NCBI RefSeq assembly: GCF_054482525.1
Contig: NZ_JBTHVG010000003.1
Reading direction: 5' to 3' (one strand)
DNA from: a plasmid
DNA: 64,000 bases
Within the stretch, counting starts at the first letter, position 1. Each line of letters starts with the position of its first letter. Below, piece after piece: positions 1,241 through 47,232 of this stretch. Below the pieces are notes generated by a model, which was given only the letters and a program-made list of their open reading frames with translations, ran no database searches and was not told the origin of the DNA. The position numbers were made by a program, and so were the translations under genes.

Positions 1241-1828
1241 CTAACGACTACCACTTTTAAGTATGTATTGAGCCAGTTTTATATTCAGGCACACCATATT
1301 GCACTCTAGCTCTTTCATCATTCTTGAAGAACTCTTAATTAAGTATTCTTCAAGTGGGCCAGCATATGCCCCTGATGTCACGATCGTTAGTTGCGTAAGA
1401 GGATGAGTCAAACTCTCAATGCCCTTCAGGATGTCATTCTGGACAGCAGCAATATAAACAGGCGAAGCCGCAATCAAATATTCATCATTCGGGCTGGACT
1501 GCATTAACTGGCTTATAGTTGCGCAACGGTTATGCTTACCTAGTGATTTTGTGATGGCTTTCCACCAGAGATCATGCCTGAATGGTACTTGATGAAATGT
1601 CGCCTCGTAAGAGGGCACCCGATCTCGACTATTTAAAAACCCCATCCCGGCAGAGATTATCCACAACTCCAGATTTCTGGTTGAGTTTAAAATTTCCTTT
1701 GCCGTAGACCAGTGATTACCTGAATACAAGGACAATGCCGGTACCGCCTGATTACTTCTGGCGTCGTCTACAATGTTACTCCAGGCATATGCTGCGTCGT
1801 CCGGGGTTTGTTTTGGATCTATGTCCAA
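1241..1828 (-). CDS. hypothetical protein
   Basis: 195-aa ORF directly left of the transposon insertion point; no family recognised. Confidence 0.5.
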   Translation of the reverse strand: MDIDPKQTPDDAAYAWSNIVDDARSNQAVPALSLYSGNHWSTAKEILNSTRNLELWIISAGMGFLNSRDRVPSYEATFHQVPFRHDLWWKAITKSLGKHNRCATISQLMQSSPNDEYLIAASPVYIAAVQNDILKGIESLTHPLTQLTIVTSGAYAGPLEEYLIKSSSRMMKELECNMVCLNIKLAQYILKSGSR

Positions 1829-1912
1829 TGTCGGCCAGACGTGGCCCTGATGATTCTTGCCCTTTGTACAGGAAGTGATTAAGTGTACTGGGGTCAGTTT
1901 GGATATCGAAAA

Positions 1913-5730: not shown

Positions 5731-6567
5731 TCATGCTGACAGCCTGAGCCTGTTGGCATGGTAAGCAATGTGCTCACCAATAAAGCTGGAAATGAAATAA
5801 TAGCTGTGGTCGTAACCAGTATGATATCGGAATGATGTGTTGATGTTCATCTCGTTGCACACTCTTTCAAGACTTTTAGTGCGTAACTGATCTTCATAAA
5901 AGGCGTCACTTAATCCCTGGTCAATAAAAATTTCTGGTAATTTCGCACCCTGTAAAATGAGACTGACGGGATCGTAGTGCTCCCACGTTTTTTTATTTTC
6001 ACCCAGGTACGCGGTGAATGCCTGTTGTCCCCATGGCACCTGAGAAGGTGACACTATTGGTGAAAATGCCGATACACTCACATATTCATCAGGATTTCGC
6101 AGCGACAGAACCAGCGCTCCCAGCCCCCCCATGGAGTGACCGGATATTGATTTCCTTGATGTTACAGGTAAATGCTCCATGACAACATCCGGAAGCTCAT
6201 GGAGAATATAGTCATACATCCTGTAATGCGTGTTCCACGGATGTTCCGTCGCGTTCAGATAAAATCCGGCACCCTGGCCCAGATCGTAGCTGTCAGCATC
6301 TGCGACATGCTCTCCACGGGGACTGGTATCAGGAACAACGACGATGATGTTGTTCCTGGCGGCATAATGCTGCATACCCGATTTGGTGATGAAATTCTGC
6401 TCCGTACAGGTCAGACCCGAGAGCCAGTACAGGACCGGCAGTTTTTCTGTTGCTGCTTTGGGGGGAAGATAAACACCGAAATTCATCTCACAATTAAGTG
6501 TTTGTGAATTATGGCGGTATACGTTTTGCCAGCCGCCAGCGCTGGCATGCTGCTCGATGAGTTCCAT
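5731..6567 (-). CDS. frmB: S-formylglutathione hydrolase (esterase D family)
   Basis: 278-aa ORF with esterase D/FrmB-like sequence including GHSMGG serine hydrolase motif. Confidence 0.85.
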   Translation of the reverse strand: MELIEQHASAGGWQNVYRHNSQTLNCEMNFGVYLPPKAATEKLPVLYWLSGLTCTEQNFITKSGMQHYAARNNIIVVVPDTSPRGEHVADADSYDLGQGAGFYLNATEHPWNTHYRMYDYILHELPDVVMEHLPVTSRKSISGHSMGGLGALVLSLRNPDEYVSVSAFSPIVSPSQVPWGQQAFTAYLGENKKTWEHYDPVSLILQGAKLPEIFIDQGLSDAFYEDQLRTKSLERVCNEMNINTSFRYHTGYDHSYYFISSFIGEHIAYHANRLRLSA

Positions 6568-6630
6568 TAGCCTCTCTCATGGTTATTTCCCCTGACAGGG
6601 AGTCAGGGGAAGTCTCTTTATAGCCGGACG

Positions 6631-7029
6631 TCAGATGAACGTATAAGCCGTGATTTTGTTACCCGCAGGGTCTCGCAGGTAGGCTGCATAGGCTCCAGGG
6701 AGATGGCTGCGCGGGCCAGGCTGACCTTCATCTTTCCCTCCGGCGGCAAGGCCCGCGGCGTGGAAAGCATCAACTTCTTCCGGACTTGCAGCTGCAAAGC
6801 CGACAGTAACGCCGTTGGCCGATGGCGCTTCACCGTTGCCCGGACGTGCAATAATAAAGGCTGGCTTTTCACGACCATAAAGTACCCAGCCATTGCCAAA
6901 CGGGCCGAGGTTATTGATGCCAAGCGTACCGAGGACAGCATCGTAAAAATCAGCGGATTTTTCAACATCGGATGCACCGATGAAGACGTGGGAAAAAACG
7001 TCATTACCAGAAATTACAGGTGTTGCCAT
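6631..7029 (-). CDS. VOC/glyoxalase-family protein
   Basis: 132-aa ORF with glyoxalase-like fold signature; sits between frmB and frmA. Confidence 0.65.
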   Translation of the reverse strand: MATPVISGNDVFSHVFIGASDVEKSADFYDAVLGTLGINNLGPFGNGWVLYGREKPAFIIARPGNGEAPSANGVTVGFAAASPEEVDAFHAAGLAAGGKDEGQPGPRSHLPGAYAAYLRDPAGNKITAYTFI

Positions 7030-7070
7030 GATCCATTTCCTTCAGTTGGTTTGACTCAGTTAAGACGCTA

Positions 7071-8210
<1,140 letters not shown>

Positions 8211-22120: not shown

Positions 22121-22940
22121 GGCACTGTTGCAAATAGTCGGTGGTGATAAACTTATCATCCCCTTTTGCTGATGGAGCTGCACATGAACCCATTCAAAGG
22201 CCGGCATTTTCAGCGTGACATCATTCTGTGGGCCGTACGCTGGTACTGCAAATACGGCATCAGTTACCGTGAGCTGCAGGAGATGCTGGCTGAACGCGGA
22301 GTGAATGTCGATCACTCCACGATTTACCGCTGGGTTCAGCGTTATGCGCCTGAAATGGAAAAACGGCTGCGCTGGTACTGGCGTAACCCTTCCGATCTTT
22401 GCCCGTGGCACATGGATGAAACCTACGTGAAGGTCAATGGCCGCTGGGCGTATCTGTACCGGGCCGTCGACAGCCGGGGCCGCACTGTCGATTTTTATCT
22501 CTCCTCCCGTCGTAACAGCAAAGCTGCATACCGGTTTCTGGGTAAAATCCTCAACAACGTGAAGAAGTGGCAGATCCCGCGATTCATCAACACGGATAAA
22601 GCGCCCGCCTATGGTCGCGCGCTTGCTCTGCTCAAACGCGAAGGCCGGTGCCCGTCTGACGTTGAACACCGACAGATTAAGTACCGGAACAACGTGATTG
22701 AATGCGATCATGGCAAACTGAAACGGATAATCGGCGCCACGCTGGGATTTAAATCCATGAAGACGGCTTACGCCACCATCAAAGGTATTGAGGTGATGCG
22801 TGCACTACGCAAAGGCCAGGCCTCAGCATTTTATTATGGTGATCCCCTGGGCGAAATGCGCCTGGTAAGCAGAGTTTTTGAAATGTAAGGCCTTTGAATA
22901 AGACAAAAGGCTGCCTCATCGCTAACTTTGCAACAGTGCC
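22121..22940 (+). mobile_element. tnp26: IS26 copy 1 (canonical Tnp26)
   Basis: 820 bp bounded by GGCACTGTTGCAAA terminal repeats; Tnp26 coding 22184-22888; residue 184 is Gly. Confidence 0.95.
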
Positions 22941-30831: not shown

Positions 30832-31651
30832 GGCACTGTTGCAAAGTTAGCGATGAGGCAGCCTTTTGTCTTATTCAAAGGCCTTACATTTCAAAAACTC
30901 TGCTTACCAGGCGCATTTCGCCCAGGGGATCACCATAATAAAATGCTGAGGCCTGGCCTTTGCGTAGTGCACGCATCACCTCAATACCTTTGATGGTGGC
31001 GTAAGCCGTCTTCATGGATTTAAATCCCAGCGTGGCGCCGATTATCCGTTTCAGTTTGCCATGATCGCATTCAATCACGTTGTTCCGGTACTTAATCTGT
31101 CGGTGTTCAACGTCAGACGGGCACCGGCCTTCGCGTTTGAGCAGAGCAAGCGCGCGACCATAGGCGGGCGCTTTATCCGTGTTGATGAATCGCGGGATCT
31201 GCCACTTCTTCACGTTGTTGAGGATTTTACCCAGAAACCGGTATGCAGCTTTGCTGTTACGACGGGAGGAGAGATAAAAATCGACAGTGCGGCCCCGGCT
31301 GTCGACGGCCCGGTACAGATACGCCCAGCGGCCATTGACCTTCACGTAGGTTTCATCCATGTGCCACGGGCAAAGATCGGAAGGGTTACGCCAGTACCAG
31401 CGCAGCCGTTTTTCCATTTCAGGCGCATAACGCTGAACCCAGCGGTAAATCGTGGAGTGATCGACATTCACTCCGCGTTCAGCCAGCATCTCCTGCAGCT
31501 CACGGTAACTGATGCCGTATTTGCAGTACCAGCGTACGGCCCACAGAATGATGTCACGCTGAAAATGCCGGCCTTTGAATGGGTTCATGTGCAGCTCCAT
31601 CAGCAAAAGGGGATGATAAGTTTATCACCACCGACTATTTGCAACAGTGCC
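30832..31651 (-). mobile_element. tnp26: IS26 copy 4 (canonical)
   Basis: 820 bp; Tnp26 coding 30884-31588 on minus strand; Gly184. Confidence 0.95.
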
Positions 31652-31801
31652 CGTCATACTTTCGCCTTCATGATCTGCAACGAGTTGATCAATAATAAGC
31701 GAAATTCGATAACGAAATTCGATATAAATCTAGAAAAAAATACCTCTATGTGTACTACGCAGTTTTAGCTGTGGCTTTCACAGGAGCACGCTTACTTACG
31801 G

Positions 31802-31839
31802 CTTAGCGTGCTTTATTTTCCGTTTTCTGAGGCGATCCC
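31802..31839. repeat. Tn21-subgroup-like 38-bp terminal inverted repeat
   Basis: Reverse complement reads GGGATCGCCTCAGAAAACGGAAAATAAAGCACGCTAAG, close to the Tn21 IR as recalled; abuts the orf5 break point. Confidence 0.5.
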
Positions 31840-32016
31840 TAGGAGCTCGGATCTCAGGACGAAGGTCTCCGCGAATGTCCGGTCGATCCGCGCGACGTCC
31901 CAGGCGGGCGTTCCCTTGGCGGACATCCACGCCGCAGCGTCGTGCATCAGCCGCACAACCTCGTCGATATCACCCGAGCAGGCGACCCGAACGTTCGGAG
32001 GCTCCTCGCTGTCCAT
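31840..32016 (-). pseudogene. orf5 (GNAT family) of the class 1 integron 3' conserved segment, truncated
   Basis: MDSEEPPNVRVACSGDIDEVVRLMHDAAAWMSAKGTPAWDVARIDRTFAETFVLRSELL then divergence. Confidence 0.7.
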
Positions 32017-32143
32017 TCGCTCCCCTGGCGCGGTATGAACCGCCGCCTCATAGTGCAGTTTGATCCTGACGAGCCCAGCATGTCTGCGCCCACCTTCGCG
32101 GAACCTGACCAGGGTCCGCTAGCGGGCGGCCGGAAGGTGAATG

Positions 32144-32983
32144 CTAGGCATGATCTAACCCTCGGTCTCTGGCGTCGCGACTGCGAAATTTCGCGAGGGT
32201 TTCCGAGAAGGTGATTGCGCTTCGCAGATCTCCAGGCGCGTGGGTGCGGACGTAGTCAGCGCCATTGCCGATCGCGTGAAGTTCCGCCGCAAGGCTCGCT
32301 GGACCCAGATCCTTTACAGGAAGGCCAACGGTGGCGCCCAAGAAGGATTTCCGCGACACCGAGACCAATAGCGGAAGCCCCAACGCCGACTTCAGCTTTT
32401 GAAGGTTCGACAGCACGTGCAGCGATGTTTCCGGTGCGGGGCTCAAGAAAAATCCCATCCCCGGATCGAGGATGAGCCGGTCGGCAGCGACCCCGCTCCG
32501 TCGCAAGGCGGAAACCCGCGCCTCGAAGAACCGCACAATCTCGTCGAGCGCGTCTTCGGGTCGAAGGTGACCGGTGCGGGTGGCGATGCCATCCCGCTGC
32601 GCTGAGTGCATAACCACCAGCCTGCAGTCCGCCTCAGCAATATCGGGATAGAGCGCAGGGTCAGGAAATCCTTGGATATCGTTCAGGTAGCCCACGCCGC
32701 GCTTGAGCGCATAGCGCTGGGTTTCCGGTTGGAAGCTGTCGATTGAAACACGGTGCATCTGATCGGACAGGGCGTCTAAGAGCGGCGCAATACGTCTGAT
32801 CTCATCGGCCGGCGATACAGGCCTCGCGTCCGGATGGCTGGCGGCCGGTCCGACATCCACGACGTCTGATCCGACTCGCAGCATTTCGATCGCCGCGGTG
32901 ACAGCGCCGGCGGGGTCTAGCCGCCGGCTCTCATCGAAGAAGGAGTCCTCGGTGAGATTCAGAATGCCGAACACCGTCACCAT
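32144..32983 (-). CDS. sul1: sulfonamide-resistant dihydropteroate synthase Sul1
   Basis: 279-aa product from internal Met [26 protein letters not shown]..., matching Sul1 as recalled. Confidence 0.95.
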
Positions 32984-33185
32984 GGCGTCGGCCTCCGCAG
33001 CGACTTCCACGATGGGGATCGGGCGAGCAAAAAGGCAGCAATTATGAGCCCCATACCTACAAAGCCCCACGCATCAAGCTTTTGCCCATGAAGCAACCAG
33101 GCAATGGCTGTAATTATGACGACGCCGAGTCCCGACCAGACTGCATAAGCAACACCGACAGGGATGGATTTCAGAACCAGAGAAC
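32977..33185 (-). pseudogene. qacEdelta1: qacEdelta1 efflux gene, additionally 5'-truncated
   Basis: C-terminal ~68 aa match QacEdelta1 ([22 protein letters not shown]...); stop overlaps the sul1 start as usual; N-terminal part replaced. Confidence 0.75.
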
Positions 33186-33189
33186 ATGT

Positions 33190-33327
33190 CATTGTACTGG
33201 AAGGCGCATTACAACTGCGGCTGGGGGATGAGTGGCACACCGTTTCTGCCGGGGAATCCCTGCGCTTCCATGCGGATATCCCGCACGCTTACGCCAATCC
33301 CGGTAAGGCCATTGTGACAGGGGTCTG
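33190..33327 (+). pseudogene. C-terminal fragment of a cupin-domain protein gene
   Basis: Hand translation ...[43 protein letters not shown], with the stop supplied inside the Tn2/Tn3 IR. Confidence 0.4.
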
Positions 33328-33357
33328 ACGCTCAGTGGAACGAAAACTCACGTTAAG
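33320..33357. repeat. Tn2/Tn3 38-bp terminal inverted repeat
   Basis: GGGGTCTGACGCTCAGTGGAACGAAAACTCACGTTAAG. Confidence 0.85.
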
Positions 33358-34655
33358 CAACGTTTTCTGCCTCTGACGCCTCTTTTAATGGTCTCAGATG
33401 TCCTTTGGTCACCAGTTCTGCCAGCGTGAAGGAATAATGGCCGAGCATATTGATATGTCCGTGGCAAAGCGGGGAGAGGCGTGCGATATCTTCATCATTC
33501 AGTGTTTCACCCTGCGCCCGGAGATGATCCAGGGCTGCCTGCATATAAATAGTGTTCCATAACACGACGGCGTTAGTGACCAGCCCCAGTGTGCCCAGTT
33601 GATCTTCCTGACCGTCGGTATATCGTTTTCTTATCTCACCTTTTTGACCGTGACAGATGGCTCTGGCAACGGCATGGCGACTTTCTCCCCGATTAAGCTG
33701 GGTCAGAATGCGCCGGCGGTAATCTTCATCATCAATATAATTAAGCAGATACAGCGTTTTGTTGATGCGCCCCACTTCAATGATTGCCTGAGTCAGTCCG
33801 GAAGGACGTTCACTTTTCAGCAATGAACGGACCAGCACTGAAACCTGTACTTTGCCCAGCTTCAGGGAGCCAGCGGTCCGGATCATTTCGTCCCACTGAA
33901 GGACTATTTTTCGGGGATCTGATTGCCCTCTGGCAATATCATTCAGCACGCCATAGTCGGCATCATGGTCCATTCGCCAGAAAACCGAAGCACCGGCATC
34001 AGCCAGGCGTGGAGAAAACTGGTATCCCAGCAGCCAGAAAAGGCCAAAGACAAGTTCGCTGGCACCTGCTGTATCGGTCATAATTTCGGTTGGATTCAGC
34101 CCGGTCTCCTGTTCCAGAAGACCTTCCAGCACAAAGATAGAGTCCCTCAGCGTCCCCGGTATAACGATGCCATGAAAGCCGGAATACTGATCGGACACAA
34201 AGTTGTACCAGGTGATCCCTCTGTTATTACCAAAGTATTTGCGGTTCGGTCCGGCATTGATTGTTCTGACTGGCGTAACAAAGCGCATTCCATCTGCAGA
34301 TGCCACTTCTCCTCCACCCCATATCTGTGCCAGTGGCAGCGTTGCCTGAAAATCAACCAGTCTGGCATTAGCGCTGGTGATAGTTTCAGCCCGCAGATAG
34401 TTCGCTTTTGTCCAGTTCAGCCGGTGTCGGGTCAGTGCAGGAACATTTGATCTGATCAGTGGTTCCAGACCGATATTGCAGGCTTCAGCCATCAGCACGG
34501 CGCTGATGCTGACGGGCAGATCATCAACTCTGGCACTGGCTTCACTAGCATGGAAAAACTCATCAGCAAATCCGGTATGGGCGTTAATTTCGAGCAGCAA
34601 CTCCGTTAAATCCACCGGAGGGAGTAGATCACTGATCATTTTGCTCAGTCGTTTC
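33353..34655 (-). pseudogene. tnpA: Tn2/Tn3 transposase, 3' fragment truncated by IS26
   Basis: 435-aa ORF with Tn3-type TnpA C-terminal sequence ending at the IR; cut at 34656 by IS26 copy 5. Confidence 0.85.
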
Positions 34656-35475
34656 GGCACTGTTGCAAATAGTCGGTGGTGATAAACTTATCATCCCCTT
34701 TTGCTGATGGAGCTGCACATGAACCCATTCAAAGGCCGGCATTTTCAGCGTGACATCATTCTGTGGGCCGTACGCTGGTACTGCAAATACGGCATCAGTT
34801 ACCGTGAGCTGCAGGAGATGCTGGCTGAACGCGGAGTGAATGTCGATCACTCCACGATTTACCGCTGGGTTCAGCGTTATGCGCCTGAAATGGAAAAACG
34901 GCTGCGCTGGTACTGGCGTAACCCTTCCGATCTTTGCCCGTGGCACATGGATGAAACCTACGTGAAGGTCAATGGCCGCTGGGCGTATCTGTACCGGGCC
35001 GTCGACAGCCGGGGCCGCACTGTCGATTTTTATCTCTCCTCCCGTCGTAACAGCAAAGCTGCATACCGGTTTCTGGGTAAAATCCTCAACAACGTGAAGA
35101 AGTGGCAGATCCCACGATTCATCAACACGGATAAAGCGCCCGCCTATGGTCGCGCGCTTGCTCTGCTCAAACGCGAAGGCCGGTGCCCGTCTGACGTTGA
35201 ACACCGACAGATTAAGTACCGGAACAACGTGATTGAATGCGATCATGGCAAACTGAAACGGATAATCAACGCCACGCTGGGATTTAAATCCATGAAGACG
35301 GCTTACGCCACCATCAAAGGTATTGAGGTGATGCGTGCACTACGCAAAGGCCAGGCCTCAGCATTTTATTATGGTGATCCCCTGGGCGAAATGCGCCTGG
35401 TAAGCAGAGTTTTTGAAATGTAAGGCCTTTGAATAAGACAAAAGGCTGCCTCATCGCTAACTTTGCAACAGTGCC
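34656..35475 (+). mobile_element. tnp26: IS26 copy 5 (Tnp26 G184N variant)
   Basis: 820 bp; Tnp26 coding 34719-35423; RIINATLGF instead of RIIGATLGF, plus one silent change. Confidence 0.95.
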
Positions 35476-35625
35476 GCCCCAGCAGCATCTCCAGCTGTGA
35501 ACGCTGTTCGGCTGACGGTATCAGTGCCAGTTTGTTCCACAGGCGCAACGTCGCCTTTTCCCTTACCTCTGAAATCAACCGGGTCAGCGTAGTGGCTCCG
35601 GGGAGAATAATAGTCTATCCCGGCA

Positions 35626-36003
35626 TTGCCAGTCGGGGATATTAAAAAGAGTATAGGTTTTTATTGCGATAAACTAGGTTTCACTTTGGTTCACCATGAA
35701 GATGGATTCGCAGTTCTAATGTGTAATGAGGTTCGGATTCATCTATGGGAGGCAAGTGATGAAGGCTGGCGCTCTCGTAGTAATGATTCACCGGTTTGTA
35801 CAGGTGCGGAGTCGTTTATTGCTGGTACTGCTAGTTGCCGCATTGAAGTAGAGGGAATTGATGAATTATATCAACATATTAAGCCTTTGGGCATTTTGCA
35901 CCCCAATACATCATTAAAAGATCAGTGGTGGGATGAACGAGACTTTGCAGTAATTGATCCCGACAACAATTTGATTAGCTTTTTTCAACAAATAAAAAGC
36001 TAA
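35626..36003 (+). CDS. bleO: bleomycin-binding protein, BleO-like
   Basis: Low-GC ORF matching the pUB110-type BleO sequence as recalled (PVGDIKKSIGFYCDKLGFTLVHHEDGFAVLMCNEVRIHLWEA...); the track starts it at a TTG, so the true N-terminus is uncertain. Confidence 0.75.
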   Translation: MPVGDIKKSIGFYCDKLGFTLVHHEDGFAVLMCNEVRIHLWEASDEGWRSRSNDSPVCTGAESFIAGTASCRIEVEGIDELYQHIKPLGILHPNTSLKDQWWDERDFAVIDPDNNLISFFQQIKS

Positions 36004-36020
36004 AATCTATTATTAATCTG

Positions 36021-36085
36021 TTCAGCAATCGGGCGCGATTGCTGAATAAAAGATACGAGAGACCTCTCTTGTATCTTTTTTATTT
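36021..36085 (+). terminator. tandem hairpins with T-run downstream of bleO
   Basis: TTCAGCAATC-GGGCGC-GATTGCTGAA then AGATACGAGAGA-CC-TCTCTTGTATCT followed by TTTTTTATTTT. Confidence 0.55.
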
Positions 36086-36090
36086 TGAGT

Positions 36091-36185
36091 GGTTTTGTCC
36101 GTTACACTAGAAAACCGAAAGACAATAAAAATTTTATTCTTGCTGAGTCTGGCTTTCGGTAAGCTAGACAAAACGGACAAAATAA
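36091..36185. repeat. long imperfect palindrome in the bleO module
   Basis: TTTTGTCCGTT...CCGAAAGAC...GTCTGGCTTTCGG...AACGGACAAAA, nested inverted repeats over ~95 bp. Confidence 0.4.
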
Positions 36186-36322
36186 AAATCTAAATATGCT
36201 TGAACAACTTGTAACTTAAATTCATAACTGTATTTTGCCATAAAAAATGACCTCCCATAAGTTAGATTTTTGGTCTAACTTATGGGGGTCAGTTCATTCT
36301 ACACTTGGGCTGCATGTTTTGA

Positions 36323-36715
36323 TTAATTATCTAATATCTCCGGATCTCCTGTAAAGGAATATAAAACTGCCTGCATGTTTTTCAAATAAAATACGGTGAA
36401 TTTCCCATCATCAGCGCTATACCAATCTCTCAAAAACGGATTTGCTTCAAGCATTGCTTCCCTTGCTTCCACGGTATCATCAATTACGGCTTCGCCGGTG
36501 AGCCGAATCCATTTTCCTTTTGCCATACCTGAGACTTCCACCTTTGAATTTGCCAATAACTGCTGATAAACTTTTTTCTGATTGGTTGTACCAAGATAGA
36601 CCTTGCCATTCCTCTCCATGGCTGCATTAAACGGTCTGACCCTTGGCTGGTCTCCTTCAACGGTTGCAAAATAAAAAGTTTTTGCTTCATTTAAAAAATC
36701 AACAACTTGACTCAT
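36323..36715 (-). CDS. pyridoxamine 5'-phosphate oxidase-like (split-barrel flavin-binding) protein
   Basis: 130-aa low-GC ORF; family assignment from general resemblance, unverified. Confidence 0.5.
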   Translation of the reverse strand: MSQVVDFLNEAKTFYFATVEGDQPRVRPFNAAMERNGKVYLGTTNQKKVYQQLLANSKVEVSGMAKGKWIRLTGEAVIDDTVEAREAMLEANPFLRDWYSADDGKFTVFYLKNMQAVLYSFTGDPEILDN

Positions 36716-36759
36716 CCTTTTTTACCTCCATAAATAAATTTTTCTTTACTTTTCTTTGA

Positions 36760-36997
36760 CCTAAATTCCACGTGCATTTTTTATTAGCTTAAAAGAACAC
36801 TATTTCACGAAGAATTTAAACTGATACTCCCACATTGTAACATTATTTACCACCACCTTTCAATCTTTTTCAATAAATTATTGATTGCAACTTTTGAGTA
36901 AAGATACTTATTAAACCCTGCAAGTTATCCACAGAGCAACACTCGATTTTCAAGATGATATCTTTATTATACCAGACATTTTTCATACACTTCCTTG
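36760..36997 (-). mobile_element. divergent ISEcp1-like (IS1380 family) 3'-end remnant, truncated by IS26
   Basis: Reverse complement aligns at roughly 85% identity with the ISEcp1 remnant at 27456-27664 and ends in ACGTGGAATTTAGG about 45 bp upstream of the 36715 start codon. Confidence 0.6.
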
Positions 36998-37817
36998 GGC
37001 ACTGTTGCAAAGTTAGCGATGAGGCAGCCTTTTGTCTTATTCAAAGGCCTTACATTTCAAAAACTCTGCTTACCAGGCGCATTTCGCCCAGGGGATCACC
37101 ATAATAAAATGCTGAGGCCTGGCCTTTGCGTAGTGCACGCATCACCTCAATACCTTTGATGGTGGCGTAAGCCGTCTTCATGGATTTAAATCCCAGCGTG
37201 GCGTTGATTATCCGTTTCAGTTTGCCATGATCGCATTCAATCACGTTGTTCCGGTACTTAATCTGTCGGTGTTCAACGTCAGACGGGCACCGGCCTTCGC
37301 GTTTGAGCAGAGCAAGCGCGCGACCATAGGCGGGCGCTTTATCCGTGTTGATGAATCGTGGGATCTGCCACTTCTTCACGTTGTTGAGGATTTTACCCAG
37401 AAACCGGTATGCAGCTTTGCTGTTACGACGGGAGGAGAGATAAAAATCGACAGTGCGGCCCCGGCTGTCGACGGCCCGGTACAGATACGCCCAGCGGCCA
37501 TTGACCTTCACGTAGGTTTCATCCATGTGCCACGGGCAAAGATCGGAAGGGTTACGCCAGTACCAGCGCAGCCGTTTTTCCATTTCAGGCGCATAACGCT
37601 GAACCCAGCGGTAAATCGTGGAGTGATCGACATTCACTCCGCGTTCAGCCAGCATCTCCTGCAGCTCACGGTAACTGATGCCGTATTTGCAGTACCAGCG
37701 TACGGCCCACAGAATGATGTCACGCTGAAAATGCCGGCCTTTGAATGGGTTCATGTGCAGCTCCATCAGCAAAAGGGGATGATAAGTTTATCACCACCGA
37801 CTATTTGCAACAGTGCC
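36998..37817 (-). mobile_element. tnp26: IS26 copy 6 (Tnp26 G184N variant)
   Basis: 820 bp; Tnp26 coding 37050-37754 on minus strand; Asn184. Confidence 0.95.
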
Positions 37818-38073
37818 AGTTTTATTGTTACATTTAAATCCACGCCGGGATCGCGGTTTTTTATCCCCCCCCTGGACCGCACATAAAGTGCAACAATTAT
37901 TCTTGCACTTAGTTAAGCGCCTTCCTACAATCGCCGCGATAGTGTATTCGAAATTGTTACAGTTTTGTGGCGATGATCGACACAAATGGCCTTAAGCCAG
38001 CCCGGACAAAGGAAGTGGCGCGGCTTCTCACGCTGCGTCTTGCCCGGCGGCTACATTTACCGGAATAAAAATA

Positions 38074-39272: not shown

Positions 39273-42200
39273 ATGGACTTTTCCCGCTTTTTTATCGACA
39301 GGCCGATTTTCGCCGCGGTGCTGTCGATTTTAATTTTTATCACCGGGTTAATCGCTATCCCACTGCTGCCGGTGAGCGAATATCCGGATGTCGTCCCGCC
39401 GAGCGTCCAGGTGCGCGCGGAGTATCCCGGCGCCAACCCGAAAGTGATTGCCGAGACCGTGGCGACGCCGCTGGAGGAAGCGATCAACGGCGTTGAAAAC
39501 ATGATGTACATGAAATCGGTCGCCGGCTCCGACGGCGTGCTGGTCACCACCGTCACCTTCCGCCCGGGTACCGACCCGGATCAGGCGCAGGTTCAGGTGC
39601 AGAACCGCGTCGCGCAGGCCGAAGCGCGTCTGCCGGAGGATGTACGCCGTCTGGGGATCACCACCCAGAAGCAGTCTCCGACGCTGACCCTGGTGGTGCA
39701 TCTGTTCTCCCCCGGCGGGAAGTACGACTCGCTGTATATGCGCAACTACGCCACGCTGAAAGTGAAGGATGAGCTGGCGCGCCTGCCCGGCGTCGGCCAG
39801 ATCCAGATTTTTGGCTCCGGTGAATATGCGATGCGCGTCTGGCTGGATCCCAATAAGGTCGCTGCCCGCGGTCTGACGGCCTCGGATGTGGTGACGGCGA
39901 TGCAGGAGCAAAACGTCCAGGTGTCTGCCGGACAGCTTGGCGCCGAGCCGCTGCCGCAGGAGAGCGATTTCCTGATCTCCATTAACGCCCAGGGCCGTCT
40001 GCATACCGAAGAAGAGTTTGGCAATATCATTCTGAAAACGGCGCAGGATGGCTCGCTGGTCCGCCTGCGCGACGTGGCGCGCATCGAGATGGGTTCCGGT
40101 AGCTATGCGCTGCGCTCCCAGCTCAACAATAAGGATGCGGTCGGGATCGGTATCTTCCAGTCACCCGGCGCTAACGCCATCGATCTGTCGAACGCGGTAC
40201 GCGCCAAAATGGCCGAGCTGGCCACCCGCTTCCCGGAAGATATGCAATGGGCGGCGCCGTACGACCCGACGGTTTTCGTCCGCGACTCCATCCGCGCGGT
40301 GGTGCAGACGCTGCTGGAGGCGGTAGTGCTGGTGGTGCTGGTAGTGATCCTGTTCCTGCAGACCTGGCGCGCGTCGATTATCCCGTTGATCGCTGTGCCG
40401 GTATCGGTGGTGGGTACCTTCAGCATTCTCTATCTGCTGGGCTTCTCGCTGAATACCCTGAGCCTGTTCGGGCTGGTACTGGCTATCGGTATCGTGGTGG
40501 ACGACGCCATCGTGGTGGTGGAGAACGTCGAGCGTAATATCGAAGAGGGGCTTGCGCCGCTTGCCGCGGCGTATCAGGCGATGCGTGAGGTCTCCGGGCC
40601 GATTATCGCCATTGCGCTGGTGCTGTGTGCGGTGTTCGTGCCGATGGCGTTTCTCTCCGGGGTCACCGGCCAGTTCTACAAACAGTTCGCGGTGACCATC
40701 GCCATCTCGACGGTGATCTCGGCCATCAACTCGCTGACGCTCTCCCCGGCGCTGGCGGCCCTGCTGTTAAAGCCGCACGGCGCGAAGAAAGACCTCCCTA
40801 CCCGGCTGATCGATCGCCTGTTTGGCTGGATTTTCCGTCCGTTTAACCGCTTTTTCCTGCGCAGCTCGAACGGCTATCAGGGACTGGTAGGCAAAACGCT
40901 TGGACGCCGTGGCGCAGTGTTTGCGGTGTACCTGCTGCTGCTCTGCGCCGCTGGGGTGATGTTTAAAGTCGTCCCCGGCGGGTTTATTCCCACCCAGGAT
41001 AAGCTGTATCTCATTGGCGGCGTGAAGATGCCGGAAGGGTCGTCGCTGGCGCGCACCGACGCGGTGATCCGCAAAATGAGCGAGATCGGGATGAATACCG
41101 AAGGGGTCGACTATGCGGTCGCTTTCCCGGGGCTTAACGCGCTGCAGTTCACCAACACGCCGAATACCGGGACGATCTTTTTTGGCCTGAAACCGTTCGA
41201 CCAGCGCAAACACACGGCGGCGGAAATTAACGCGGAGATCAACGCCAAAATCGCGCAAATCCAGCAGGGCTTTGGCTTTTCCATCCTGCCGCCGCCGATT
41301 TTAGGTCTGGGTCAGGGTTCCGGCTACTCCCTGTACATCCAGGATCGCGGAGGGCTGGGCTATGGCGCGCTGCAAAGCGCGGTGAATGCGATGTCCGGGG
41401 CGATTATGCAGACGCCGGGGATGCACTTCCCGATCTCGACTTACCAGGCTAACGTGCCGCAGCTGGACGTGCAGGTCGATCGCGATAAGGCGAAAGCGCA
41501 GGGGGTATCGCTAACCGATCTGTTCGGTACGCTGCAGACCTATCTCGGCTCGTCTTATGTCAATGACTTTAACCAGTTCGGGCGTACCTGGCGCGTGATG
41601 GCCCAGGCTGACGGACCATACCGCGAGAGCGTGGAAGATATCGCCAATCTGCGCACCCGCAATAATCAGGGCGAAATGGTACCGATCGGCAGTATGGTGA
41701 ATATCAGTACCACCTACGGGCCGGATCCGGTGATCCGCTACAACGGTTATCCGGCGGCGGACCTGATTGGCGATGCCGATCCGCGGGTCCTCTCTTCTTC
41801 GCAGGCGATGACGCATCTGGAAGAGCTGTCGAAGCAGATCCTGCCGAATGGGATGAATATTGAGTGGACGGATCTCAGCTTCCAGCAGGCCACCCAGGGC
41901 AACACGGCGCTGATCGTCTTCCCGGTGGCGGTGCTGCTGGCATTCCTCGTACTGGCCGCGCTGTATGAAAGCTGGACCCTGCCGCTGGCGGTGATCCTTA
42001 TCGTACCGATGACGATGCTCTCCGCGCTGTTTGGCGTCTGGCTGACCGGGGGCGATAACAACGTCTTCGTGCAGGTGGGTCTGGTGGTCCTGATGGGCCT
42101 GGCCTGTAAAAACGCCATTCTGATCGTCGAGTTTGCCCGCGAGCTGGAGATCCAGGGGAAAGGCATCATGGAAGCGGCGCTGGAGGCATGCCGCCTGCGT

Positions 42201-42425
42201 CTGCGCCCGATCGTGATGACCTCCATCGCCTTTATCGCCGGGACCATTCCGCTGATCCTCGGCCACGGCGCGGGGGCGGAAGTCCGCGGCGTCACCGGGA
42301 TCACGGTGTTCTCCGGGATGCTGGGCGTGACGCTCTTCGGTCTGTTCCTGACGCCGGTGTTTTACGTGACGCTACGGAAACTGGTGACCCGCAGGAAGCC
42401 GGTCCAGGAGGATCTGCCCGCCTAG
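39273..42425 (+). CDS. oqxB: RND efflux transporter OqxB
   Basis: 1050-aa ORF, 12-TM RND permease, 23 bp downstream of oqxA. Confidence 0.95.
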   Translation: MDFSRFFIDRPIFAAVLSILIFITGLIAIPLLPVSEYPDVVPPSVQVRAEYPGANPKVIAETVATPLEEAINGVENMMYMKSVAGSDGVLVTTVTFRPGTDPDQAQVQVQNRVAQAEARLPEDVRRLGITTQKQSPTLTLVVHLFSPGGKYDSLYMRNYATLKVKDELARLPGVGQIQIFGSGEYAMRVWLDPNKVAARGLTASDVVTAMQEQNVQVSAGQLGAEPLPQESDFLISINAQGRLHTEEEFGNIILKTAQDGSLVRLRDVARIEMGSGSYALRSQLNNKDAVGIGIFQSPGANAIDLSNAVRAKMAELATRFPEDMQWAAPYDPTVFVRDSIRAVVQTLLEAVVLVVLVVILFLQTWRASIIPLIAVPVSVVGTFSILYLLGFSLNTLSLFGLVLAIGIVVDDAIVVVENVERNIEEGLAPLAAAYQAMREVSGPIIAIALVLCAVFVPMAFLSGVTGQFYKQFAVTIAISTVISAINSLTLSPALAALLLKPHGAKKDLPTRLIDRLFGWIFRPFNRFFLRSSNGYQGLVGKTLGRRGAVFAVYLLLLCAAGVMFKVVPGGFIPTQDKLYLIGGVKMPEGSSLARTDAVIRKMSEIGMNTEGVDYAVAFPGLNALQFTNTPNTGTIFFGLKPFDQRKHTAAEINAEINAKIAQIQQGFGFSILPPPILGLGQGSGYSLYIQDRGGLGYGALQSAVNAMSGAIMQTPGMHFPISTYQANVPQLDVQVDRDKAKAQGVSLTDLFGTLQTYLGSSYVNDFNQFGRTWRVMAQADGPYRESVEDIANLRTRNNQGEMVPIGSMVNISTTYGPDPVIRYNGYPAADLIGDADPRVLSSSQAMTHLEELSKQILPNGMNIEWTDLSFQQATQGNTALIVFPVAVLLAFLVLAALYESWTLPLAVILIVPMTMLSALFGVWLTGGDNNVFVQVGLVVLMGLACKNAILIVEFARELEIQGKGIMEAALEACRLRLRPIVMTSIAFIAGTIPLILGHGAGAEVRGVTGITVFSGMLGVTLFGLFLTPVFYVTLRKLVTRRKPVQEDLPA

Positions 42426-42440
42426 CCTGCAGCAGATAAC

Positions 42441-42478
42441 AAAAAAACCGCCTTCACAATTTGAAGGCGGTTTTTTTT
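42441..42478. terminator. bidirectional rho-independent terminator
   Basis: A-run, AACCGCCTTCA-CAATT-TGAAGGCGGTT hairpin, T-run; lies between convergent oqxB and oqxR. Confidence 0.7.
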
Positions 42479-42494
42479 CGTCACCAGAAAATGA

Positions 42495-43023
42495 TTAATG
42501 CGCTTTTTTAAAGCGGGCGATCATTTCCGGCACCGGGTCGCAGCCGCTGGTATCGGCGTTTTTGACCGCCTCCAGCGCGCTGGCCACGGTATGGCGAGCG
42601 AGGACGTTTAACGAAGCCTGCTCTGCTTCATCGGCAACCGATTTGAAGTACCAGCAGGCGTTGGCGCTGACCACGCAGCGGGCCGGGACGTCAGGACGCG
42701 ACGCCCACAGTTTTTTATCTTCGATAACCGAAAGATAGATATCACGCAGGGTGATCTTGTCCGCCGGACGGCCAAGATGAATTGAGCCGTTGCGACCAAG
42801 CGTGGAGACGATAATGCCGTCACGAGTTAGCGGAACCATTAGTTTACGGATAAAGCTCGGGTTCGCTTCCAGGCCGTAGGCCAGAATCGCACTCGTCGAA
42901 CGTTCACCCATCTGCTCCGCCATTGCTACGCTGAGAACCATCTGCAAAGCTGTCGGGAAGCGGTAATCTAACATGGCAGTGTCCTGGGTTGCGGTGAATC
43001 TTGTTCTTTTTAGCACCGCAGAG
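42495..43023 (-). CDS. oqxR: Rrf2-family repressor OqxR, N-terminus replaced at the IS26 junction
   Basis: Rrf2-like sequence from LDYRFPTALQMVLSVA onward; the in-frame N-terminus MNKTKGCLIANFATVP is encoded inside IS26 copy 7. Confidence 0.65.
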
Positions 43024-43843
43024 GGCACTGTTGCAAAGTTAGCGATGAGGCAGCCTTTTGTCTTATTCAAAGGCCTTACATTTCAAAAACTCTGCTTACC
43101 AGGCGCATTTCGCCCAGGGGATCACCATAATAAAATGCTGAGGCCTGGCCTTTGCGTAGTGCACGCATCACCTCAATACCTTTGATGGTGGCGTAAGCCG
43201 TCTTCATGGATTTAAATCCCAGCGTGGCGTTGATTATCCGTTTCAGTTTGCCATGATCGCATTCAATCACGTTGTTCCGGTACTTAATCTGTCGGTGTTC
43301 AACGTCAGACGGGCACCGGCCTTCGCGTTTGAGCAGAGCAAGCGCGCGACCATAGGCGGGCGCTTTATCCGTGTTGATGAATCGTGGGATCTGCCACTTC
43401 TTCACGTTGTTGAGGATTTTACCCAGAAACCGGTATGCAGCTTTGCTGTTACGACGGGAGGAGAGATAAAAATCGACAGTGCGGCCCCGGCTGTCGACGG
43501 CCCGGTACAGATACGCCCAGCGGCCATTGACCTTCACGTAGGTTTCATCCATGTGCCACGGGCAAAGATCGGAAGGGTTACGCCAGTACCAGCGCAGCCG
43601 TTTTTCCATTTCAGGCGCATAACGCTGAACCCAGCGGTAAATCGTGGAGTGATCGACATTCACTCCGCGTTCAGCCAGCATCTCCTGCAGCTCACGGTAA
43701 CTGATGCCGTATTTGCAGTACCAGCGTACGGCCCACAGAATGATGTCACGCTGAAAATGCCGGCCTTTGAATGGGTTCATGTGCAGCTCCATCAGCAAAA
43801 GGGGATGATAAGTTTATCACCACCGACTATTTGCAACAGTGCC
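43024..43843 (-). mobile_element. tnp26: IS26 copy 7 (Tnp26 G184N variant)
   Basis: 820 bp; Tnp26 coding 43076-43780 on minus strand; Asn184; direct orientation with copy 6 around oqxAB. Confidence 0.95.
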
Positions 43844-43990
43844 ACGCAAAGACGTAATGAGCAGTGTATCCCCTGCCACAATACCCTCTTCAGGGATGCT
43901 GTCAGTGGACGTCCAGTACTGACCCGCCAGCAAAGAATGAAATCGCTCTAAACGGTCAATGCTATTTTTGCTGACCAGGTCACCCATATA
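43844..43990 (-). pseudogene. backbone gene 5' fragment truncated by IS26
   Basis: Hand translation from ATG near 43990: MGDLVSKNSIDRLERFHSLLAGQYWTSTDSIPEEGIVAGDTLLITSLR, running into IS26 copy 7. Confidence 0.3.
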
Positions 43991-44237
43991 CTTTTCCTTC
44001 CAGATTCGTGTGTTAGGTGAATCATACCAGATTGCCCTTGCCGTCTAATAACGCAGAAAACTGTGAATCCAAAATTCCTTAAATTCAAACCTGTCCAATA
44101 TAAAAGATGGCTCTTTTTCTTATCCAGTGTTAAGCGATAATGCTCAATTTTATTTCATTATTGTCAGAATCAAAATAATCTGAAAATAAAAAAGGCTTCA
44201 GAATTGAAGCCTCTATATTATACAACGTGAATGTATT

Positions 44238-44594
44238 TTATTTATCTTTCACCGGGTTCATTTCCCAGTATCTTTCACGTACGTTTTCTTGGCAATGGTC
44301 CGCTCGCTCCGGCGTGTCCCTTTTACGAGTAGCAAATGCTTCAATTACGGCATTCAAGTCTTTTTCTTTGATTTTAGATCCAACAGGCAAGTTTTCTTCA
44401 AACTCAGTCCTTACCAGTTCTTTCGTTTTTTTATAATCGGTTTCACTTTGGATTTCAGGTTTTAAACAAATATCGGCAACCATCACATCTGATTTGCCCG
44501 GGATCGGTTTTTTCCCGTTTTCAGATGCAAGGACCGCAGAGGAGGTAAAGGCGACAGACAGAGTTGCACATAACAGAAGGTATTTTAATTTCAT
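44238..44594 (-). CDS. secreted hypothetical protein
   Basis: 118-aa ORF with signal peptide (MKLKYLLLCATLSVAFTSSAVLA). Confidence 0.45.
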   Translation of the reverse strand: MKLKYLLLCATLSVAFTSSAVLASENGKKPIPGKSDVMVADICLKPEIQSETDYKKTKELVRTEFEENLPVGSKIKEKDLNAVIEAFATRKRDTPERADHCQENVRERYWEMNPVKDK

Positions 44595-44743
44595 GACTCA
44601 CTCCATGATTATCAATGATGGTTGCTCAGACACATCATTTATACCATGCCTGTCACCGAATACGAGATCCCCATATTTTGGCTTTAAATATTATCCAATA
44701 GGGTTTCATACACCTGGCTTCTGAAAGCAAGGTTCAAGGAGCT

Positions 44744-45361
44744 TCAGGGGGAAATCAGATTGTTGTCGACCCAGTACTTGTGCAAACCTACCACCCAATT
44801 CCTGGAAATGGACGAAAGTTCATGCGCCAGTTCACGACAGCATTCAGGCGTAAAAATACGTATGGGTCCTGAAGTACCGATATCAACAGACATGATAAAC
44901 TCCAGAATGTTGCCATGGCATAGGTTGTTTCTCAGCCTGACAATTTCTGCTTCAGGTGTTCTCCCGGCTGCTACCTTAACCAACATATCCTGCTCGGCTG
45001 GAAATGAAAGTAATTCTACCGGCACCCCTTCCTGCTTGGCCTTTCTCAGTAAGGCATTACTCATTACGGAGATACCCTCCAAGTCCACCAGCTCAGGAGC
45101 TGCATGCTGATCGTTAACTGTTGGTTTCAGCATCAGCGACTTCAACGTAACCATGAGTGATGTTTCAATCCCGTTCAGGAAGCTCGTACAGGCCGGTATC
45201 CATAGTTCGTGATGCAACGCCTCGGTTGCTTGTTTAAAGAACCAGTCAATCACGGGGACAGTGTGATAATCATAATAGTGATTTATCTCGCTGAATCTTG
45301 ACATATAAGCATCGTACTCAGCCTGGTCTTCAGGAGATAAAAAATTTGGTGGGAGGGGCAT
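44744..45361 (-). CDS. hypothetical protein
   Basis: 205-aa ORF; no family recognised. Confidence 0.45.
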   Translation of the reverse strand: MPLPPNFLSPEDQAEYDAYMSRFSEINHYYDYHTVPVIDWFFKQATEALHHELWIPACTSFLNGIETSLMVTLKSLMLKPTVNDQHAAPELVDLEGISVMSNALLRKAKQEGVPVELLSFPAEQDMLVKVAAGRTPEAEIVRLRNNLCHGNILEFIMSVDIGTSGPIRIFTPECCRELAHELSSISRNWVVGLHKYWVDNNLISP

Positions 45362-45515
45362 CAGAATCCTTTCATCCTAGCTTGTATACCTTCTTCGTAG
45401 GCCAGCTCGCCATTATCGGTAAAAGATGGTTTTTGGTGTTTGTGACAAAGCTTAATTTTTCGTCAGGCTCGATAGCGTTACCGGAGAGATTTGATCTTTT
45501 CTCTGTAACTCGCAA

Positions 45516-45535
45516 TACTGTTTATACATACAGTA
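45516..45535. promoter_or_regulatory. LexA (SOS) box
   Basis: TACTGTTTATACATACAGTA, a close match to the TACTG-N10-CAGTA consensus, 20 bp upstream of the umuD-like start. Confidence 0.65.
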
Positions 45536-45554
45536 TGAGAATTCGAGTGTAGCT

Positions 45555-45989
45555 ATGTCTGTTATCCTTGAGCACATTAGCAACAAGCCTTACGAAATGG
45601 CACCTTTTTTCAGTGATTTACTGAGCTGTGGAGTGATGAGTCCGTGCGCCGGGCATGAAGATAATGAATTAAATTTGCATGAATATGTAGTCCGTAACCG
45701 CCCCTCAACCTTCTTTGTCAGGGCGGCGGGCCTCAGTATGATCAATGCCGGTATCAATGATGGCGCTATTCTGGTTGTGGATCGGTCTTTAACGGCACGA
45801 CACGGCTCTATCGTCGTTGCGCTGGTGGATGGAGAGTTCACGGTAAAGATCTTACACACGTATCCTGAGCTGCTTTTGATGCCTTCTAATCCAGCCTATA
45901 AGCCGATACGTGTAAATCCCGAATCCCTTGAGATATGGGGCGTCGTCACCTTTGCACTGAATCAGTTTAGCCATGTACATGCACGTTGA
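45555..45989 (+). CDS. umuD: UmuD/MucA-like self-cleaving accessory subunit of error-prone polymerase
   Basis: 144-aa ORF with LexA-like S24 peptidase features (cleavage-site-like CG, Ser/Lys dyad region). Confidence 0.8.
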   Translation: MSVILEHISNKPYEMAPFFSDLLSCGVMSPCAGHEDNELNLHEYVVRNRPSTFFVRAAGLSMINAGINDGAILVVDRSLTARHGSIVVALVDGEFTVKILHTYPELLLMPSNPAYKPIRVNPESLEIWGVVTFALNQFSHVHAR

Positions 45990-47232
45990 TATTAACGGGG
46001 CCTATGCGGCATTTGAGTGTGCGATGGATCCCAAGCTGGCAAAAAAGCCGCTCATCATAGCCAGCAATAACGATTCGTCCGTCATTGCAATGAATAAACT
46101 GGCTAAAAGCGTTGGTATTAAGCGTGGGACCCCAATTTTTAAGTGCAGGGATTTGATTCAGCAACACCAGATCGAAGTCCGGAGCTCTAACTTTACTTTG
46201 TATGAAGACTACTCAAATCGCTTCCATGAAACGCTGGAAAGCTTCGCGCCTCAATCGAGTCGATATAGCATAGATGAAAATTTCATGTTATTGAAAAACA
46301 TGAACAAGATAATAGATTATGAAGATTACGGCCGGTTGATCAGAAGTACACTTCTTCATAATCTGTCCCTTACCTGTGGTGTGGGGTGTTCAAGCACCAA
46401 AACCCTGGCTAAATTATGCACCTATGCGAGCAAACGATGGGCAGCTACAGGCGGGGTTGTAGTTTTGACTGATCAGGCCAGGATCAGGAAGCTCCTGGGC
46501 CTTATCAGTACCAGAGAAATATGGGGTATTGGTCAAAAGATCAGTGAACGCCTGTCGGCTTTCGGGATCATCACTGCCGGTGATTTTTATAATAGCGACG
46601 TTCGCTTTTTACGTAAAAGCTTTGGCGTTGAAATCGAGCGTACCTGGCGGGAACTGCATGGCGAACCATGTTTCCGGCTGCATGAATCCCCTCCTGTCCG
46701 GCAACAGATTATCGTTTCCAGAAGTTTTGGTCAGCGCCTTAATGAGATAGGCAAGCTACATGAGGCAGTTTCATTTTTTACCGCCCGGGCGGCAGAGCAG
46801 CTGCGCAAGGATGGCTCGTGGACCCGTCAAATCACAGTCTTCATTCAGAGCAGCAATTATGCGCAAGGTGAAAACCGCTACAGCAATTGTGGTATCGAGC
46901 CGCTTACCGCTACACAGGACACCCGCGATCTGGTTGATGCAGCCATGACCATCCTGAACCGCATTTACAAACCCGGGATAGCGTATGCGAAAGCTGGGGT
47001 AATGCTCTCCGCTATGACTGACGGCACAGAGCAACTCAGCCTGTTTGATGAGCGCCCGGCCAGGCCTGGCAGTCAGGCACTGATGAAAGTTATGGACCGG
47101 TTCAATAAAGAAAAGCGCGGAGCTCTGTTTTTGCTGGGGGAAGGCATTCAACAGGATTTTCGTATGAAACAGGCCATGCTATCACCGAGATATACGACCC
47201 GCTGGGATGAATTACTCGTTGTAAAAGCGTAG
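45973..47232 (+). CDS. umuC: UmuC/MucB-like Y-family DNA polymerase
   Basis: 419-aa ORF overlapping the umuD stop; N-terminus VDINGAYAAFE resembles the UmuC palm start; true start may be ATG at 45979. Confidence 0.85.
   Translation: MYMHVDINGAYAAFECAMDPKLAKKPLIIASNNDSSVIAMNKLAKSVGIKRGTPIFKCRDLIQQHQIEVRSSNFTLYEDYSNRFHETLESFAPQSSRYSIDENFMLLKNMNKIIDYEDYGRLIRSTLLHNLSLTCGVGCSSTKTLAKLCTYASKRWAATGGVVVLTDQARIRKLLGLISTREIWGIGQKISERLSAFGIITAGDFYNSDVRFLRKSFGVEIERTWRELHGEPCFRLHESPPVRQQIIVSRSFGQRLNEIGKLHEAVSFFTARAAEQLRKDGSWTRQITVFIQSSNYAQGENRYSNCGIEPLTATQDTRDLVDAAMTILNRIYKPGIAYAKAGVMLSAMTDGTEQLSLFDERPARPGSQALMKVMDRFNKEKRGALFLLGEGIQQDFRMKQAMLSPRYTTRWDELLVVKA

Follow-up and report, generated by a model that had tools for sequence, protein, structure and literature searches.

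A probable two-junction scar beside sul1 joins truncated qacEdelta1, a Morganella-like regulator fragment and a Tn2 inverted repeat

Introduction

The integrons in which ISCR1 was first seen are In6 and In7. A common origin was reported for the partial duplications of the 3'-CS in these two integrons (Stokes et al. 1993, as relayed in PMC6218425 and PMC3940617). A circle-plus-recombination model of how ISCR1 captures neighbouring DNA has also been summarised (PMC3940617). Structures of this kind are found on plasmids of several groups. The IncU plasmid pRA3 (NC_010919) and plasmids of Shewanella and Vibrio carry, in this order, a 3'-CS, ISCR1, catA2, a small ORF, a cupin remnant, truncated qacEdelta1, sul1, orf5 and IS6100, while an IncFII plasmid of K. 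oxytoca (CP020359) and the Proteus plasmid pZN5-103kb carry the same qacEdelta1-cupin join and 183 bp of the remnant, then dfrA3b, then ISCR1. A complete 3'-CS lies beyond ISCR1 in both the catA2-type and the dfrA3b-type records, and in the pRA3, Shewanella, K. oxytoca and Proteus plasmids ISCR1 itself sits at the opposite end of the captured segment, ~0.9-1.9 kb from the join. In6 of pSa carries catA2, so that pRA3 is an In6-type structure. For the DNA studied here, the name In6 is used by way of pRA3 and of Stokes et al. (1993) as cited in those papers.

A second described system is the Tn2 of plasmid pOLA52, which is interrupted by IS26-ble-Tn6010, including oqxAB. In pOLA52 this interrupted Tn2 lies in an IncX1 backbone, keeps both of its ends and is flanked by the 5-bp duplication TTATA (positions 41898-46578 and 2071-2113 of our pOLA52 sequence, L009). 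As both ends are kept, the interrupted Tn2 could have been mobile in one piece, given a transposase acting in trans. The block, designated deltaTn2-IS26-ble-Tn6010, has been described in IncHI2 plasmids (PMC5645526); pHXY0908 and pHK0653 are two examples of this group that carry it. Separately, a chromosomal catA2 is on record in Morganella morganii (PMC3521468), and catA genes are missing from a 2021 curated list of the origins of mobile resistance genes (PMC7782503).

Here we describe a locus within a 64,000-nucleotide stretch of plasmid DNA (contig NZ_JBTHVG010000003.1 of assembly GCF_054482525.1), hereafter the window. The qacEdelta1-cupin structure as such is already known, common and ordinary among resistance plasmids.

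Results

Layout of the sul1 block

The block and its boundaries comprise the following features (coordinates are those of the window):

30832-31651, minus strand: left-bounding IS26, with 14-bp terminal repeats at 30832 and 31651 and a 240-aa transposase ORF at 30884-31606
31652-31838: end of a Tn21-like chrA transposon (TnchrA), ~150 bp of the chrA end plus a ~38-bp terminal repeat (~31802-31839)
31839-32016, minus strand: truncated orf5 (GNAT acetyltransferase gene of the 3'-CS), first ~59 codons
32144-32983, minus strand: intact sul1, no other gene of the segment being complete
32977-33184, minus strand: qacEdelta1 remnant, nt 141-348 (Ser48 to stop), opening a partial second copy of the 3'-CS
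33164-33328, plus strand: chimeric 54-codon ORF made of 7 antisense qacEdelta1 codons, 45 cupin codons and 2 Tn2-repeat codons, then a stop
33182-33184: 3-nt overlap GAA at the join of qacEdelta1 and Morganella-like DNA, common to both parents
33185-33319, plus strand: XRE-HTH/cupin regulator remnant, 135 bp, codons 133-177 of 190, from a Morganella-like chromosome
33320-33357, plus strand: 38-bp terminal inverted repeat of Tn2, tnpA end (IRL), a perfect match
33353-34655, minus strand: Tn2 tnpA remnant, last 434 codons, cut by IS26 as in pOLA52
34656-35475, plus strand: right-bounding IS26 interrupting Tn2, recognised by its terminal repeats, its ORF and its match to pOLA52

Alignment with the complete 3'-CS of the K. 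oxytoca plasmid CP020359 identifies 32977-33184 as qacEdelta1 nt 141-348. Specifically, identity to the 3'-CS runs from ...TTCTCTGGTTCTG onward, with none before, and the homology ends abruptly at 33184/33185. From nt 141 of qacEdelta1, identity to the canonical 3'-CS spans sul1 and extends into orf5, and sul1 is annotated at 100% identity within identical plasmid segments. A whole qacEdelta1 is a 115-codon ORF starting MKGWLF; in the window the first 140 nt are missing and codons 48-115 are kept, so that the QacE remnant lacks 47 of 115 codons and retains the last 68 residues.

At the other end of the block, homology to the 3'-CS of pRA3 begins at 31839, and the orf5 reading frame (31813-32016) starts MDSEEPPNVRVACSGDIDEV. 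The gene is truncated by the TnchrA end, which is in turn cut by IS26, whereas in pRA3 orf5 runs on to IS6100. The segment 31652-31838 matches 'chrA' contexts of many plasmids at 100%, and its last 40 bp correspond to the terminal repeats of the Tn21 family. The sul1 block has been struck by three different transposable elements.

The cupin fragment and its join to qacEdelta1

On the plus strand, 33185-33319 encodes 45 residues that match the Pfam family Cupin_2 (E = 2e-11; 43.7 bits, against a profile cut-off of 27.2 bits). The match covers profile positions 20-62 of 70 and is accompanied by no HTH. Since full-length relatives (~185-190 aa) have both an HTH and the whole barrel, the stretch is a fragment of a gene from the XRE-HTH plus Cupin_2 regulators (YdcN/PuuR-like), not a member gene of that family. 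Nor is it the normal upstream sequence of qacE, a possibility that had been named as fatal to the initial reading of this DNA, as comparison with the complete 3'-CS finds no similarity beyond 33184.

The trinucleotide GAA at the join is common to both parents, and the breakpoint can therefore be placed only between 33181/33182 and 33184/33185, as determined by nucleotide comparison of the window, pRA3 and two Morganella contigs (L012 and L013, below). Read on the minus strand, which is the sense strand of ISCR1, the join lies within the tetranucleotide GTTC (CATGTTC/TCTGG). GTTC is the target and cleavage tetranucleotide of the IS91 family (PMC13181058), which is suggestive and no more, because the canonical IS91 rule puts the target tetranucleotide beside oriIS, not at the far end. 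The qacEdelta1-cupin join carries no ISCR1 end and no other IS.

The cupin fragment is open in the chimeric ORF 33164-33328, which annotation pipelines label 'cupin domain-containing protein' (WP_072644484.1). Its frame crosses the Tn2 junction as ...GTG ACA/GGG GTC TGA, and its stop codon therefore comes from the Tn2 repeat. Neither an HTH domain nor the first half of the cupin barrel (strands 1-3) is left in the ORF, and for that reason we judge it non-functional. A scan of 32900-33500 for promoters and terminators found no site.

These results bear out most of an earlier note on this DNA, made from its letters. The note had started the qacEdelta1 match at about residue 49, which is right to within one codon. 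It had also read the end of a cupin-like protein on the opposite strand upstream, assigned the stop codon of that frame to a Tn2/Tn3 inverted repeat at 33320-33357 and seen no IS at the join, all of which agrees with the profile match, the repeat match (below) and the junction itself.

The same join in complex class 1 integrons

The breakpoint at qacEdelta1 nt 141 and the adjoining 135 bp are the same, base for base, in the window and in pRA3, and sul1 and orf5 follow in both. The copy of the 3'-CS in the window starts inside qacEdelta1 and continues through sul1, and the DNA that adjoins it is the end of the ISCR1 variable region, as in a partial second 3'-CS. By this comparison, the join is the known boundary at which, in In6-type integrons, the ISCR1 variable region meets a second copy of the 3'-CS that is only partial. 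Junctions of this class have been described since Stokes et al. (1993; cited in PMC6218425 and PMC3940617).

Compared with pRA3, the window keeps the last 135 bp of a 1.9-kb variable region and lacks catA2, ISCR1, the first 3'-CS, the cassettes and intI1. Searches of the window for an ISCR1 oriIS end, a qacEdelta1 start, catA2 or the rest of its segment were negative. Because ISCR1 and catA2 are missing, the tie of the join to ISCR1 rests on identity with the other records; because ISCR1 and the first complete 3'-CS are missing, the window holds a relic and not a complex integron. The cupin fragment beside qacEdelta1 shows that this sul1 copy comes from a complex integron of the catA2 (In6) type, namely from its second 3'-CS, and not from an ordinary integron.

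The ISCR1-dfrA3b integrons (CP020359 and pZN5-103kb) have the same join and the same 183-bp remnant, which ends 6 nt past the cupin stop codon. Beyond these 183 bp they carry a 753-bp dfrA3b segment in place of the 1,720-bp catA2 segment. That the two types share the remnant shows that it has accompanied the partial 3'-CS in at least two capture or replacement events. The point of divergence, 6 nt after the cupin stop, falls in an apparent terminator hairpin (the 753-bp dfrA3b variable region is at L002 4001-4936 and L007 3871-4806).

Two further observations concern the oriIS side of pRA3. A direct duplicate of the 18 bp at the ISCR1 oriIS end (GGGTATAGGAAGTATAAA) stands at the margin of the variable region (L001, the pRA3 sequence, 5886-5923). 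Furthermore, the 78 bp that precede this duplication match Morganella DNA ~600 bp further downstream (L014 10190-10267), from which we deduce additional deletions, or template switching, within the captured segment.

A full-length source gene in Morganella

The source gene was sought with a codon-degenerate 35-nt DNA pattern in one genome per species, 100,044 species genomes in total. Only two chromosomes matched, both of M. morganii, and both carry a full-length 190-codon HTH_3 plus Cupin_2 gene that is convergent with a chromosomal catA2 and lies beside a benE-like permease gene. The search for a full-length source that the earlier note had proposed thus ends in Morganella. Codons 133-190 of this gene are present in pRA3 and codons 133-177 in the window.

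The 1.9-kb catA2 variable region of pRA3 is collinear with the Morganella locus benE-XRE/cupin-catA2, at 82-96% nucleotide identity. The matches to the pRA3 variable region (L001 4001-5818) are:

L012, Morganella-like Logan contig, 6001-7560: 95.7% nucleotide identity
L015, Morganella-like Logan contig, 1317-3071: 93.8% nucleotide identity
L010, M. morganii chromosome, 1117-2912: 87.4% nucleotide identity
L011, M. morganii chromosome, 6029-7914: 81.8% nucleotide identity

Gene order and orientation in the Morganella locus are as in the plasmid variable region. The C-terminal 58 aa of the regulator are 88-95% identical between chromosome and plasmid and CatA2 92-98.6% identical, with 210 of 213 residues shared between CatA2 of pRA3 and the L015 protein. 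The 135 bp of the window are 94.1% identical to L012 and 89.6% identical to L010. In Morganella the regulator gene is complete (190 codons), and the nucleotide identity of 82-96% means that no sampled Morganella lineage is the actual donor; no donor at >96% identity was found among the sampled genomes and contigs.

The collinearity of the variable region with the chromosome indicates a Morganella-like donor for mobile catA2. In such a donor the cupin gene is the native neighbour of catA2, and the fragment marks the far end of the captured segment. A separate donor for the cupin remnant had been considered, given its GC content (55%, against 41% for the rest) and the fact that dfrA3b-type integrons share the remnant only; for the catA2-type segment, to which the rejection applies, the Morganella collinearity rules it out.

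Protein searches with the 58-aa remnant behaved differently. A word-index search returned just three truncated plasmid ORFs, and a search of 50%-representative proteins gave a best identity of 56%; both missed the 88-95% identical Morganella proteins, which the degenerate DNA scan and a search with the full-length protein recovered. As a separate observation, the XRE/cupin gene of Morganella is often frameshifted or truncated among the lineages that have been sequenced (P0155, P0165, P0166, P0272, P0273 and P0279), and several of these breaks lie at or near codons 130-133.

Natural deletion alleles in Morganella

Two contigs of metagenome-assembled genomes, L013 and L014, which come from different samples and are 96% identical here, are without exactly the cupin-3'/catA2 block, a deletion of 1.74 kb. 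The left end of the deletion (...GTTATC/GAACATG...) is, to the nucleotide, the point at which plasmid DNA begins beside qacEdelta1. The right end lies inside an AATAA repeat, and at this repeat the plasmid copy is itself interrupted by a gap of ~90 bp. The ends of the deletion thus coincide with discontinuities of the plasmid copy to within a few nucleotides. The positions are:

L013 8385-8400: deletion allele (compare window 33181-33185 and L001 ~5731)
L014 9385-9405: deletion allele (same comparison)

In the flank, L012 and L013 are 99.7% identical, yet L012 retains the catA2 block. Direct repeats, integron core sites, dif-like sites and a strict IS91 target rule were each considered as the cause of the matching breakpoints, and none fits.

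The Tn2 junction and the IS26 boundaries

The remnant ends at the terminal base of a transposon repeat. Positions 33320-33357 match the Tn1/2/3 inverted repeat at 38 of 38 positions; this is the sole copy in the window, where 0 would be expected by chance, and the tnpA remnant ORF ends inside it, at 33353. We call the element Tn2 since the literature so names the pOLA52 transposon, although the 38-bp repeat itself would assign it to the Tn1/2/3 group. From the first base of the repeat, the window (33320-38000) is continuous with pOLA52 (L009 41898-46578) at 99.96% identity, including the IS26 cut point in tnpA.

At the junction, the window reads ...GTGACA/GGGG and pRA3 reads ...GTGACA/CTGCAT, so that IRL adjoins the remnant at its terminal base. 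Such exact-base abutment is the hallmark of a Tn3-family insertion and not of a deletion. The expected reciprocal junction, IRR(Tn2)-TGACA-CTGCATAATCTG, was absent from both the window and PLSDB, and transposition of Tn2 into the remnant is therefore read from one end. In contrast to the two-ended transposon of pOLA52, with its TTATA duplication, the window has IRL adjoining the cupin remnant and neither IRR nor the blaTEM end.

Seven complete IS26 copies are spread across 22 kb of the window (22121-43843; starts at 22121, 24776, 26636, 30832, 34656, 36998 and 43024). They divide sul1, ble, oqxAB and other parts of the IncHI2 multiresistance region.

Distribution of the junctions

At least 154 PLSDB records contain the 321 bp with both junctions (33100-33420) at 100% identity; most of these records are IncHI2 plasmids of ~250 kb from Salmonella and E. 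coli. Identity of this extent in so many records shows that the structure is not due to chance, and it answers in the affirmative a question left by the earlier note, whether the junction recurs in other plasmids. The double junction is also present in 58 of 5,426 complete E. coli genomes. On the join side, the 135-bp cupin fragment is 100% identical in 169 PLSDB records, pRA3 among them, and ~15 PLSDB records have the qacEdelta1-cupin join without Tn2.

Discussion

We consider it highly probable that the region is a two-junction scar, produced by an ISCR1-related join to Morganella DNA, a later hit by Tn2 and then trimming by IS26 and TnchrA. In the first step, ISCR1 with a partial 3'-CS ending at qacEdelta1 nt 141 would have joined a Morganella-like XRE/cupin gene at codon 132/133, in the tetranucleotide GAAC/GTTC and with a 3-nt overlap. 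The adjacent chromosomal DNA (the cupin 3' half, the terminator, the small ORF and catA2) would then have been mobilised and rescued into a class 1 integron, giving an In6-type product with 5'-CS, cassettes, 3'-CS, ISCR1, the catA2 segment and the partial 3'-CS. For the enzymology of this step we infer rolling-circle or one-ended transposition by ISCR1, followed by homologous recombination in the 3'-CS. The regulator piece would have arrived decades ago, together with the chloramphenicol-resistance gene catA2.

In the second step, Tn2 would have landed in the cupin remnant, at a distance of 135 bp from the join, the element being the same Tn2 that is interrupted by IS26 in pOLA52, upstream of ble and oqxAB. 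This insertion would have cost the remnant its last 13 cupin codons and provided the TGA stop from the Tn2 repeat. Finally, IS26 events, whose order we infer, and the insertion of TnchrA would have stripped Tn2 of its blaTEM end and the integron of intI1, the cassettes, the first 3'-CS, ISCR1 and catA2. The outcome would be the present IS26-bounded 3.0-kb block (31652-34655), with sul1 as its only intact gene.

The first step has a serious competitor, which we regard as possible but clearly the less probable account: illegitimate recombination at a microhomology shared by qacEdelta1 and the cupin gene, not rolling-circle transposition of ISCR1, may have produced the join. In this scheme, of the Partridge-Hall type and held with the same reserve, a circle of partial 3'-CS, ISCR1 and captured DNA would have been closed in that way and entered another integron by homologous recombination. 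The 3-nt GAA overlap fits microhomology, and simple read-through past terIS does not explain why the captured DNA is found on the oriIS side of ISCR1. Against this, the join falls on GTTC, the IS91-family motif, and the remnant of 183 bp that dfrA3b and catA2 regions have in common is explained at least equally well if a single ISCR1 unit moved serially. Under both models, the accepted last step is the rescue of a circle by recombination (PMC3940617).

Whichever way the ISCR1-related join was made, the Morganella deletion alleles raise a further idea, namely that the breakpoint is not arbitrary. The catA2 block may be an excisable module, or GTTC/GAAC may be a recurrent cleavage site of an IS91/ISCR-type HUH enzyme; we rate this as an outside chance.

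A more local origin, by deletion or recombination between a resident cupin gene and qacEdelta1 within this plasmid lineage, is very improbable. It is true that no IS lies at the join and that IS26-rich regions, such as this one with its seven copies, do generate deletions. However, the identical join is found in unrelated replicons without Tn2 (IncU pRA3, IncFII, Shewanella, Vibrio and Proteus), with ISCR1 and catA2 or dfrA3b intact, and the join is therefore older than this plasmid; in addition, no full-length cupin gene was found in the plasmids searched. The earlier note had suggested the scar of an earlier deletion or recombination. The scar stands; its making by a local deletion does not, given that complete ISCR1 integrons elsewhere have the same join.

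Least credible of all is a functional fusion under selection, whether the plus-strand chimera (33164-33328) or the QacE ORF with its replaced N-terminus (32977-33240, minus strand): both are open, the plus-strand ORF is called a cupin protein by pipelines and the sequence is 100% conserved in >150 plasmids, but the entire block is identical, so that this conservation reflects recent common descent, and the cupin piece has 45 of 190 codons with neither HTH nor barrel strands 1-3, the QacE piece preserves only the 68 C-terminal residues, out of 115, of a protein that was defective to begin with, 32900-33500 offers no promoter-like site, and the versions before and after Tn2 differ in their C-termini with no sign of constraint. 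We therefore judge the layered scar at 33185-33357 to be inert.

The calls 'cupin domain-containing protein' and 'DMT family transporter' made at this place in hundreds of plasmid records refer to gene fragments, not genes. The double junction offers a handy way to trace the lineage of the IS26-bounded sul1 block in IncHI2 plasmids that carry oqxAB. If either reading of the breakpoint were true, the relic and the Morganella alleles would together preserve both products of an ISCR-type capture, and Morganella would be identified as the origin of mobile catA2. As it stands, the collinearity of the catA2 segment with the Morganella chromosome adds modestly but usefully to knowledge of the origins of mobile resistance genes.
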